The notes under the pieces: model-generated
Seen by the model: only the letters and a program-made list of their open reading frames with translations
Databases searched by the model: none
Told to the model about the DNA's origin: nothing
Position numbers and translations under genes: made by a program
Shown here: positions 8,119-10,894 of the stretch, piece by piece
Position numbering within the stretch: the first letter of the stretch is position 1
Layout of the letters: every line of letters starts with the position of its first letter
IMG/VR virus record: IMGVR_UViG_2548877010_000018
Reading direction: 5' to 3' (one strand)
From: a virus
Taxonomy: Duplodnaviria > Heunggongvirae > Uroviricota > Caudoviricetes
Length of the DNA stretch: 14,811 nucleotides

Positions 8119-8904
8119 ATGAGTACAGCACTCGCAACGCTGGCAGGGAAGCTGGCTGAACGTGTCGGCATGGATTCTGTCGACCCACAGGAACTGATCA
8201 CCACTCTTCGCCAGACGGCATTTAAAGGTGATGCCAGCGATGCGCAGTTCATCGCATTGTTGATCGTCGCCAACCAGTACGGCCTTAATCCGTGGACGAA
8301 AGAAATTTACGCCTTCCCTGATAAGCAGAACGGCATCGTTCCGGTGGTGGGCGTTGATGGCTGGTCCCGCATCATCAATGAAAACCAGCAGTTTGATGGC
8401 ATGGACTTTGAGCAGGACAATGAATCCTGTACATGCCGGATTTACCGCAAAGACCGTAATCATCCGATCTGCGTTACCGAGTGGATGGATGAATGCCGCC
8501 GCGAACCATTCAAAACCCGCGAAGGCAGAGAAATCACCGGCCCGTGGCAGTCGCATCCCAAACGGATGTTACGGCATAAAGCCATGATTCAGTGTGCCCG
8601 TCTGGCCTTCGGATTTGCTGGTATCTATGACAAGGATGAAGCCGAGCGCATTGTCGAAAATACTGCATACACTGCAGAACGCCAGCCGGAACGCGACATC
8701 ACTCCGGTTAACGATGAAACCATGCAGGAGATTAACACTCTGCTGATCGCCCTGGATAAAACATGGGATGACGACTTATTGCCGCTCTGTTCCCAGATAT
8801 TTCGCCGCGACATTCGCGCATCGTCAGAACTGACACAGGCCGAAGCAGTGAAAGTTCTTGGATTCCTGAAACAGAAAGCCTCTGAGCAGAAGGTGGCTGC
8901 ATGA
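8119..8904 (+). CDS. bet: Bet (Red-beta) single-strand annealing recombinase
   Basis: 261-aa translation [38 protein letters not shown]...KASEQKVAA matches lambda Bet as recalled. Stop overlaps exo start (ATGA). Confidence 0.92.
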
Positions 8905-9156
8905 CACCGGACATTATCCTGCAGCGTACCGGAATCGACGTGAGAGCTGTCGAACAGGGGGATGATGCATGGCACAAATTACGGCTCGGCGTCATCACCG
9001 CTTCAGAAGTTCACAACGTGATAGCAAAGCCCCGCTCAGGAAAGAAGTGGCCTGACATGAAAATGTCCTACTTCCACACCCTGCTTGCCGAGGTTTGCAC
9101 CGGTGTGGCTCCGGAAGTTAACGCTAAAGCACTGGCCTGGGGAAAACAGTACGAGA
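8901..9156 (+). pseudogene. exo: exo (lambda exonuclease) 5' fragment, interrupted by IS insertion
   Basis: [40 protein letters not shown]...ALAWGKQYE matches lambda Exo N-terminus as recalled. Reading frame then runs into the IS end at 9157; track ORF 8901-9392 is an exo/IS chimera. Confidence 0.9.
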
Positions 9157-9198
9157 TGAACCGCCCCGGGTTTCCTGGAGAGTGTTTTATCTGTGAAC

Positions 9199-10089
9199 TC
9201 AGGCTGCCAGATCATCGTTTCCGATGGAAGCATAATAAGCTTTTTCTGCTTCTGCCGGAGGAGTATGGCCCAGCCTTCCCAGCAATCGTCGATTGTTATA
9301 CCAGTCCACCCACGTTAGTGTGGCCAGTTCCACTTCTGCACGGTTTTTCCAGCTCTTACGGTGTATTACCTCCGCTTTGTAAAGACCATTGATGCTCTCA
9401 GCCATCGCGTTGTCATACGAGTCGCCTGTACTCCCTGTTGATGCCAGTAATCCGGCTTCTTTTAGTCGCTCCGTATAGGCCAGTGACACATACTGAGAGC
9501 CTTTATCGCTGTGATGGATGGTGCCAGACGGACGACGGGCCCACAACGCCTGCTCCAGCGCATCCAGCACGAATGTCGTTTCCATAGACGATGAGACCCG
9601 CCACCCCACGATGTATCCGGCAAACACATCAATGATAAACGCCACATAGACGAAGCCCTGCCATGTGCTGACGTAAGTAAAATCAGCCACCCACAGCTGG
9701 TCAGGTCGTTCTGCCACGAACTGACGGTTTACGCGGTCGCCTGCGGCAACGGCTTTCCGGCTGATGGTCGTACGGACCTTTTTACCCCGGAGAACACCGG
9801 CAAGTCCCATAACCGCCATGAGACGTGCCACTGTACATCTGGCCACCCTGATTCCTTCCCGTAACAACTGACGCCAGACTTTACGCACACCGTACACCTG
9901 ATGATTTTCATCGTATACGCGCTGTATCTCTCTCTTCAGCCAGTCGTCGTGCTGCGCACGGGCACTGCGTTTATCCGGATGATGTCGCTGTTGCTGACAA
10001 TGGTAATACGTTGACGGGGCAATATGCAGTTCGCTGCATACCGGTCCGACCCCGTACTGCTCACGCAGCTTATCCAGCAGTGGCATCAT
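9199..10089 (-). CDS. IS3-family transposase OrfB (integrase core domain)
   Basis: 296-aa ORF with a DDE-type integrase core. Start overlaps orfA stop (ATGA), and an A6 run (plus-strand tttttt 10089-10094) at the junction suits the -1 frameshift that yields OrfAB. Confidence 0.9.
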
Positions 10090-10412
10090 TTTTTCCAGAG
10101 GCGGTCGAACTCCGCCTTCGCAAAATAAGCGGAAGCCTGGCGAAGGATATCGTTACTGCGGCGCAGTTCACGATTTTCACGTTCCAGCTCTTTCAGACGC
10201 TGACGTTCAGCGCTGGTGAGCCCACCATCACCGCCCCCGGTATCCCGCTCATGCTGGCGAACCCAGACACGCAGAGTCTCCGGCGTACAGCCAATCTTTG
10301 GGGCAATGGAACAAATTGCCGCCCACTGTGAGTCATATTCATCCTGACTTTCCAGAACCATACGAATCGCCCGCTGACGGACTTCGGGGGAAAAACGAGT
10401 ATTTTTAGTCAT
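10086..10412 (-). CDS. IS3-family transposase OrfA (HTH / leucine-zipper)
   Basis: 108-aa [29 protein letters not shown]..., HTH plus coiled-coil ([21 protein letters not shown]) typical of IS3 OrfA. Confidence 0.9.
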
Positions 10413-10466
10413 CCTGTTTACCTCTTTCTCAGGGAGTTTAGTCTCCAGGATTTCCGGGGCGGTTCA

Positions 10467-10894
10467 AGAACGACGCCAGAACCCTGTTTGAGTTCACTTC
10501 CGGCGTGAATGTTATTGAATCCCCGATCATCTATCGCGACGAAAGTATGCGTACCGCCTGCTCTCCCGATGGTTTATGCAGTGACGGCAATGGCCTTGAG
10601 CTGAAATGCCCGTTTACCTCCCGGGATTTCATGAAGTTCCGGCTCGGTGGTTTCGAGGCCATAAAGTCGGCTTACATGGCCCAGGTGCAGTACAGCATGT
10701 GGGTGACACGAAAAGATGCCTGGTACTTTGCCAACTATGACCCACGTATGAAGCGTGAAGGACTGCATTATGTCGTGGTTGAGCGGGATGAAAAGTACAT
10801 GGCGAGTTTTGACGAGATGGTGCCGGAGTTCATCGAAAAAATGGACGAGGCACTGGCTGAAATTGGTTTTGTATTTGGGGAGCAATGGCGATGA
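10467..10894 (+). pseudogene. exo: exo (lambda exonuclease) 3' fragment downstream of the IS
   Basis: Reading from 10467 in the exo frame gives (E)[36 protein letters not shown]...GFVFGEQWR, continuing lambda Exo exactly where the 5' fragment stops once the IS and one AGA copy are removed. Confidence 0.9.

Follow-up and report, generated by a model that had tools for sequence, protein, structure and literature searches.

A full-length IS629 element interrupts the exo gene in the leftward operon of an Stx2c-type prophage of Escherichia coli O157:H7

What interrupts the exo gene in the early leftward (pL) operon of the prophage sequence held as IMG/VR record IMGVR_UViG_2548877010_000018, what is left of the gene, and how did the interruption come to be there? 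We analyzed the whole stretch of 14,811 nucleotides, referred to below as the window. It corresponds at 100% identity to positions 2-14812 of contig AJMD01000026.1 (assembly GCA_000260475.1); accession AJMD00000000 belongs to E. coli NCCP15658, an enterohaemorrhagic isolate from Korea (PMC3558956; PMC7215717), and this source strain is of the O157:H7 type. The window covers the early region of a lambdoid prophage resembling phage 2851 (FM180578, Pankowvirus), the prototype Stx2c phage. We are highly confident that a full-length and apparently transposition-competent copy of the insertion sequence (IS) IS629 moved into codon 86 of exo in this Stx2c-type prophage, which lies beside sbcB, and duplicated the target bases AGA. 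An original prediction, made from the letters of the sequence, had read the locus as an exo gene split by a complete IS3-family element with an AGA duplication and with gam and bet left intact, and our analysis confirms this to the base.

The boundaries of the element can be placed exactly. It begins with TGAACCGCCCCGGGTTTCCTGGAGA at 9157 and ends with the imperfect inverse TCTCCAGGATTTCCGGGGCGGTTCA at 10466, the two 25-bp arms matching at 22 of 25 positions. The termini, TGAACC...GGTTCA, provide the 5'-TG and CA-3' ends typical of the IS3 family, and the occupied junction between exo and the IS reads GGGGAAAACAGTACGAGA followed directly by TGAACCGCCCC. The element has the two-gene arrangement of the IS3 family: orfA and orfB overlap by 4 nucleotides, with orfB in the -1 frame, and an ALIL pseudoknot (Rfam RF01497), a stimulator of -1 programmed frameshifting, spans their junction. 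In the identical genes of the source contig, Pfam assigns HTH_Tnp_1 to orfA and rve/rve_3 to orfB. The exo copy has one mismatch in 1,312 aligned bases (99.9%) to the annotated IS629 of phage 2851 and no differences from the copy in strain EC4115, for which RefSeq gives an intact 'IS3-like element IS1203 family transposase' with a programmed frameshift. The open reading frames (ORFs), the pseudoknot and the near-identity to the phage 2851 and EC4115 copies identify the element as a complete IS629, also known as IS1203, of the IS3 family. All its parts are intact, and it is apparently competent for transposition. The length of the AGA duplication agrees with the 3-4 bp characteristic of the IS3 family, and 3-bp repeats flank most of the complete IS629 copies tabulated by Rump et al. 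(2011).

The sequences on the two sides of the element are contiguous parts of one gene. Joining 8901-9156 to 10470-10894, which removes the IS and one AGA copy, produces a 681-bp ORF of 226 amino acids. Its product aligns with lambda Exo (NC_001416) over the full length and ungapped, with 222 of 226 residues identical (98%), so that the lambda-like protein foreseen in the original prediction is indeed restored. The spliced protein also matches the lambda exonuclease structures PDB 1AVQ and 3SLP over its full length (E ~1e-154). By homology the interrupted gene thus encoded a full-length lambda exonuclease (YqaJ/PF09588, Red-alpha). The predicted position between about codons 85 and 86 was likewise accurate, the break falling after the first base of codon 86.

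A repeat of AGA taken alone has a chance expectation of 1/64. The insertion stands beyond chance because a natural empty site matches the splice and the occupied junction recurs in 19 assemblies. The empty site is found in E. coli strain 10671, in which the spliced 600-bp junction is uninterrupted and 100% identical, and uninterrupted homologues are present in about 3,300 complete genomes. The left junction in its occupied state was recovered, colinear and in one piece, from 19 independent, complete assemblies of O157:H7 strains, among them EC4115, TW14359, SS17, SS52 and TR01. The window is colinear with EC4115 over 682-14811 at 99.93%, the IS and both AGA copies included. The direct repeat is therefore reproduced in assemblies independent of the one from which it was predicted.

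Neither piece of exo would be expected to remain active after the insertion. Its reading frame is broken at codon 86 by 1,313 bp, and we therefore regard exo as a pseudogene and not as a functional member of its family. The upstream frame continues into the IS as far as 9392, giving a 163-residue fusion ORF in which 78 residues are derived from the IS. The downstream fragment has no start in register, its first in-frame start being a GTG at 10505. Residues D119, E129 and K131, which on the basis of published structures we take to be catalytic in lambda Exo, are conserved in the alignment of the spliced protein, and all three lie in the downstream fragment. The gene is almost certainly a null allele, because the 85-residue N-terminal piece lacks these three residues and the C-terminal piece lacks both an in-register start and the first 85 residues of the protein. 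We considered a split but functional, two-piece Exo, and rejected it because the C-terminal piece is without that start and the N-terminal piece runs into the 78 IS residues. In EC4115, RefSeq annotates the exo halves around the intact transposase as YqaJ-family pseudogenes, 'missing C-terminus' and 'missing N-terminus'.

Judged by its flanks, the insertion is an IS629 site that was already known and was catalogued in 2011. Rump, Fischer and Gonzalez-Escalona (2011, BMC Microbiol 11:133) listed the IS629 sites of four O157:H7 genomes, and in their Table S2 site IS.35 has the flanks CAGTACGAGA and AGAACGACGC, with coordinates 2713108-2714417 in EC4115 and 2712089-2713398 in TW14359. The flanks on either side of the IS, the 1,310-bp element and the position in the prophage are identical to those in the window. 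The paper labels the site 'Sp 5 stx 2' only and does not name exo, and the NCCP15658 backbone differs from that of the IS.35 strains by a few single-nucleotide polymorphisms (SNPs), by the module beyond dnaB and by a second IS629. By polymerase chain reaction (PCR), the same authors found IS.35 in a third strain as well and not in the others tested. Among the literature searched, Table S2 is the only place where the exo::IS629 insertion is listed; an explicit description of it was not found in PMC8046923, PMC7175801, PMC4928038 or PMC4587872, though these treat Red genes or IS629 in Stx phages. The site is known and polymorphic, being listed as IS.35 and occupied in some O157:H7 genomes and empty in others, and its occupation is a matter of ordinary strain-to-strain variation. 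The coordinates of the features are collected in Table 1.

Table 1. Features of the interrupted Red operon and of the IS629 copies in the window, with the basis of each assignment
Feature	Position	Strand	Basis
Second IS629 copy, cut by contig end	1-657	plus	orientation opposite to that of the exo copy; 100% identity with 9157-9813 (-)
gam, full form of 138 amino acids	7697-8113	plus	134/138 identical to lambda Gam; Pfam Gam on homologous gene
bet, intact	8119-8904	plus	259/261 identical to lambda Bet; Pfam RecT
exo 5' fragment, codons 1-85 and base 1 of codon 86	8901-9156	plus	ORF, splice, lambda Exo alignment
AGA target-site duplication, left copy	9154-9156		flank CAGTACGAGA also in Rump 2011 Table S2, IS.35
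IS629/IS1203, complete, 1,310 bp	9157-10466	minus	inverted repeats, ORFs, identity to reference copies
Terminal inverted repeat, orfB-side end	9157-9181		inverted-repeat pair, 22/25 complementary
IS629 orfB, 296 amino acids, rve DDE integrase domains	9199-10089	minus	ORF list and Pfam
ALIL pseudoknot	10015-10131	minus	Rfam RF01497, 121.5 bits, E 1e-31, full model
IS629 orfA, 108 amino acids, HTH_Tnp_1	10086-10412	minus	ORF list and Pfam
Terminal inverted repeat, orfA-side end	10442-10466		other arm of the same inverted-repeat pair
AGA target-site duplication, right copy	10467-10469		sequence and Rump 2011 Table S2
exo 3' fragment, rest of codon 86 to stop	10470-10894	plus	ORF, splice, lambda Exo alignment
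AlpA-type small helix-turn-helix protein, putative excisionase	14620-14811	plus	AlpA-type

The same site, orientation and duplication appear on two prophage backbones, because the closest relatives of the window have an intact exo. Several observations of this kind weigh against our main reading of the insertion in NCCP15658. No complete genome contains the occupied junction at 100%, the 19 EC4115-type genomes each differing by one base. The closest complete relatives share an IS629 on the dnaB side, with 100% identity over 1-9156 in strain 7636, yet their exo is intact. The insertion in NCCP15658 is also carried by one 2012 draft contig, which itself begins inside another IS629 copy. Exo is uninterrupted in both strains with the dnaB-side IS629 that were examined (7636 and NCCP 13892), and none of the six such strains is among the genomes with the occupied junction. 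The two-backbone pattern may have come about by independent insertion at a hot spot, by recombination between prophages, or by repeated, IEE-promoted loss of an older insertion, an error in the draft being less likely. Such an error, for instance a repeat placed at gap closure in a strain whose exo is really intact, would fit the break of the assembly within an identical IS629 copy, which shows that repeats did interrupt it, and the intact exo of the nearest complete relatives. We nevertheless consider it very improbable: assembly would run straight through an intact exo, a random misjoin would not be expected to fall exactly on an established, genuine IS629 site and leave a perfect 3-bp duplication, and differences from the EC4115 backbone on both sides show that the region is no mere copy of that reference. 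An origin of the allele in NCCP15658 independent of that in EC4115 and TW14359, with codon 86 as a preferred target of IS629, is a serious contender, though we lean slightly against it. It would account for a backbone of the 7636/NCCP 13892 type; the EC4115 prophage has private SNPs at 8898 and 8629 of the window, 260 and 530 bp from the IS, has a different module left of 682 and lacks the dnaB-side IS629. Repeated landings of IS629 elsewhere in the same operon, in 644-PT8 and WGPS6, point in the same direction. Against this, only two backbones are known, about 0.07% apart and with some variants shared mosaically, so that the allele could have passed from one prophage to another by recombination. 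Excision of IS629 promoted by IEE is a known process (PMC9943667), through which the relatives could have lost an older insertion. The flanking chromosomal sequence (4.6 kb) shows no SNP against any comparator and hence does not place the strain, and a scan of IMG/VR for the exact junction returned one further contig, of the EC4115 type, and no new backbone. More doubtful is the stronger claim that codon 86 is a recurrent, orientation-specific target, the same three bases having been hit independently on at least two Stx2c-prophage backbones, those of the EC4115 clade and of the Korean NCCP15658 lineage. If true, this would point to a hot spot directed by sequence or structure, or to selection for the loss of Exo in toxin prophages.

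Maintenance by selection, in which the loss of Exo, or antisense or polar effects of the IS on pL, would stabilize the Stx2c prophage or alter its induction, seems improbable to us. In its favour, a successful lineage is fixed for the allele (the 19 complete genomes, which include 2006 spinach-outbreak strains), and in other strains the same operon has been struck by IS629 several times independently and has suffered one deletion next to an IS. However, most of the 199 records with a match of at least 99% to this exo allele are uninterrupted, and lambda red mutants are generally known to be viable. Nor do promoter or terminator signals rise above chance. The original prediction had the IS bringing its terminators and any outward promoter into the pL operon; in 8800-11000, a consensus scan found one promoter-like site against 1.8 expected from shuffled controls, and a terminator scan found four terminator-like sites against 2.0 +/- 1.3. 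We dropped the idea of IS629 as a carrier of regulatory signals into pL, as nothing in this interval rose above the shuffled controls. Loss of the prophage is evidently not prevented by the insertion, since EC4115 carries exo::IS629 and derivatives of it, cured in the laboratory, are reported to be entirely without the stx2c prophage at sbcB (PMC7175801). Transposition of a full-length IS629 into codon 86 of exo remains the reading that we prefer for the window itself.

The neighbours of exo in the Red operon are both full length. The bet stop overlaps the exo start (ATGA), and RefSeq annotates the gam of the relatives in a form of 98 amino acids. Identity to the lambda counterparts is 97-99% for Gam, Bet and the restored Exo, and the gene order and the overlapping stop and start codons are shared with the lambda Red operon. 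The operon differs from that of lambda in the interruption of exo, in the position of int on the opposite strand and in the presence of an AlpA-type regulator in place of xis. With exo interrupted, the window does not hold a complete lambda Red system of three intact genes in one operon, and the description of the locus as a Gam+ Bet+ Exo- system holds at the level of ORFs. The predicted placement of the IS upstream of the xis/int side is right in part: the AlpA-type putative excisionase (14620-14811) does lie downstream in the pL direction, whereas int is on the opposite strand. The gene for the AlpA-type protein shares the pL transcript and runs over the 3' end of the opposite-strand integrase gene, unlike the int-xis arrangement of lambda.

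The consequences of the insertion can be proposed as follows. Transposition of IS629 into codon 86, with duplication of the 3-bp target, would have made exo a null allele within the early leftward operon. Gam and Bet could still be produced once the prophage is induced. In lambda, polymerase modified by N overrides the polarity that insertions cause. The phage encodes an N-type antiterminator (Pfam N_peptide), which probably lets transcription from pL continue through the IS, so that the downstream genes are probably still transcribed. In recombineering, Bet alone supports the annealing of single-stranded DNA, and it is plausible that Bet-only annealing persists here without Exo. The phage would be red-defective for the resection of double-strand ends unless another resident lambdoid prophage supplied Exo. 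O157:H7 genomes usually carry other, intact copies of exo, with two or more additional homologues as a rule (three places per record), and such homologues are described in Sp5, Sp15 and Sp3 (PMC8046923). Because other prophages of O157:H7 carry exo, the cell as a whole is unlikely to lack Exo. The insertion is probably neutral as long as the lysogen stays repressed.

The exo copy is not the only IS629 in the window. The second copy lies directly downstream of the dnaB-type helicase gene, and a full IS629 occupies the same dnaB-side junction in 7636 and NCCP 13892; the junction is common to the window, 7636, Z1834, 1613 and three Korean strains, NCCP 13892, 13894 and 13906. The two inverted copies bracket 8,499 bp that include the genes for the helicase, O, cII, cro, cI, N, gam and bet, and this arrangement could serve as a substrate for inversion or for movement like that of a composite transposon. 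An inversion between the two copies since the insertion into exo was considered and is argued against by the intact AGA pair. The 24 bases at 658-681, which separate the left IS629 from the shared backbone, agree with the type of 7636 and MB9-1 and not with that of EC4115 and phage 2851. In the 7636/MB9-1 type this sequence is followed by a gene for an HNH endonuclease. The change of type marks the edge of a mosaic module, close to the helicase gene on its downstream side.

The pL operon of this prophage family collects IS629 hits. In 644-PT8, IS629 is also found in the operon, at two other sites: upstream of a 173-residue ORF (window ~4985) and inside ea10/DUF2528 (window ~7286), at 11368-12581 and 14995-16208 in its own coordinates. 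The same IS disrupts early-left genes in Stx2a_WGPS6, where it lies in ea10 (own coordinates 7986-9199) and is accompanied by an adjacent deletion that removes cIII, kil and gam. The early region of phage 2851 is at least 99.9% identical to that of the window, with a shared order from int to dnaB, and the phage carries one IS629; its exo is intact, and its IS629 is located between the antirepressor genes antA and antB.

The gene content of the window is that of a lambdoid early region. On the minus strand, from left to right, are the genes for a dnaB-type helicase, O, cII and cro; the plus strand carries cI, the 173-residue ORF, N, ea10, cIII, kil, gam, bet and exo, followed by small ORFs and the AlpA-type regulator. 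The integrase gene extends just beyond the window, at 14793-15971 (minus) of the source contig, with sbcB at 16153-17577. The identity of the early region and the integrase beside sbcB place the prophage with the Stx2c-type prophages at sbcB (the phage 2851/1717 group). The sister prophages in 7636 and NCCP 13892 carry stx2c, located in those strains beyond the contig end on the IS side. The conserved 173-residue ORF (5010-5531, plus) lies between cI and N, in the position of the exclusion genes rex/sieB in lambda, and has no Pfam match. The Rfam Lambda_thermo model, the cIII thermoregulator RNA, matches in full at 7453-7511 (plus; 88.5 bits) and overlaps the start of cIII. An ORF of 181 amino acids at 12765-13310 (plus) is open in the window and broken in the relatives examined, either by a 2-bp deletion (EC4115, WGPS6) or by a 5-bp deletion (7636, phage 2851), the variants lying at 12950-12952 and 13197-13201. 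RefSeq marks this ORF as frameshifted or as containing an internal stop in several strains.

IS629 is a main, documented driver of the diversification of Stx phages (PMC4587872). Differences in the positions of IS629 already serve for the typing of O157:H7 strains, and the exo site is one more, already listed, example. It offers a clean presence/absence marker, of 1,994 bp when occupied and 681 bp when empty. That a Gam+ Bet+ Exo- operon occurs naturally is little more than a curiosity, since recombineering has made recombination by Bet alone familiar and other prophages in these genomes carry exo. Whether the same site was hit twice would bear on the choice of targets by IS629.

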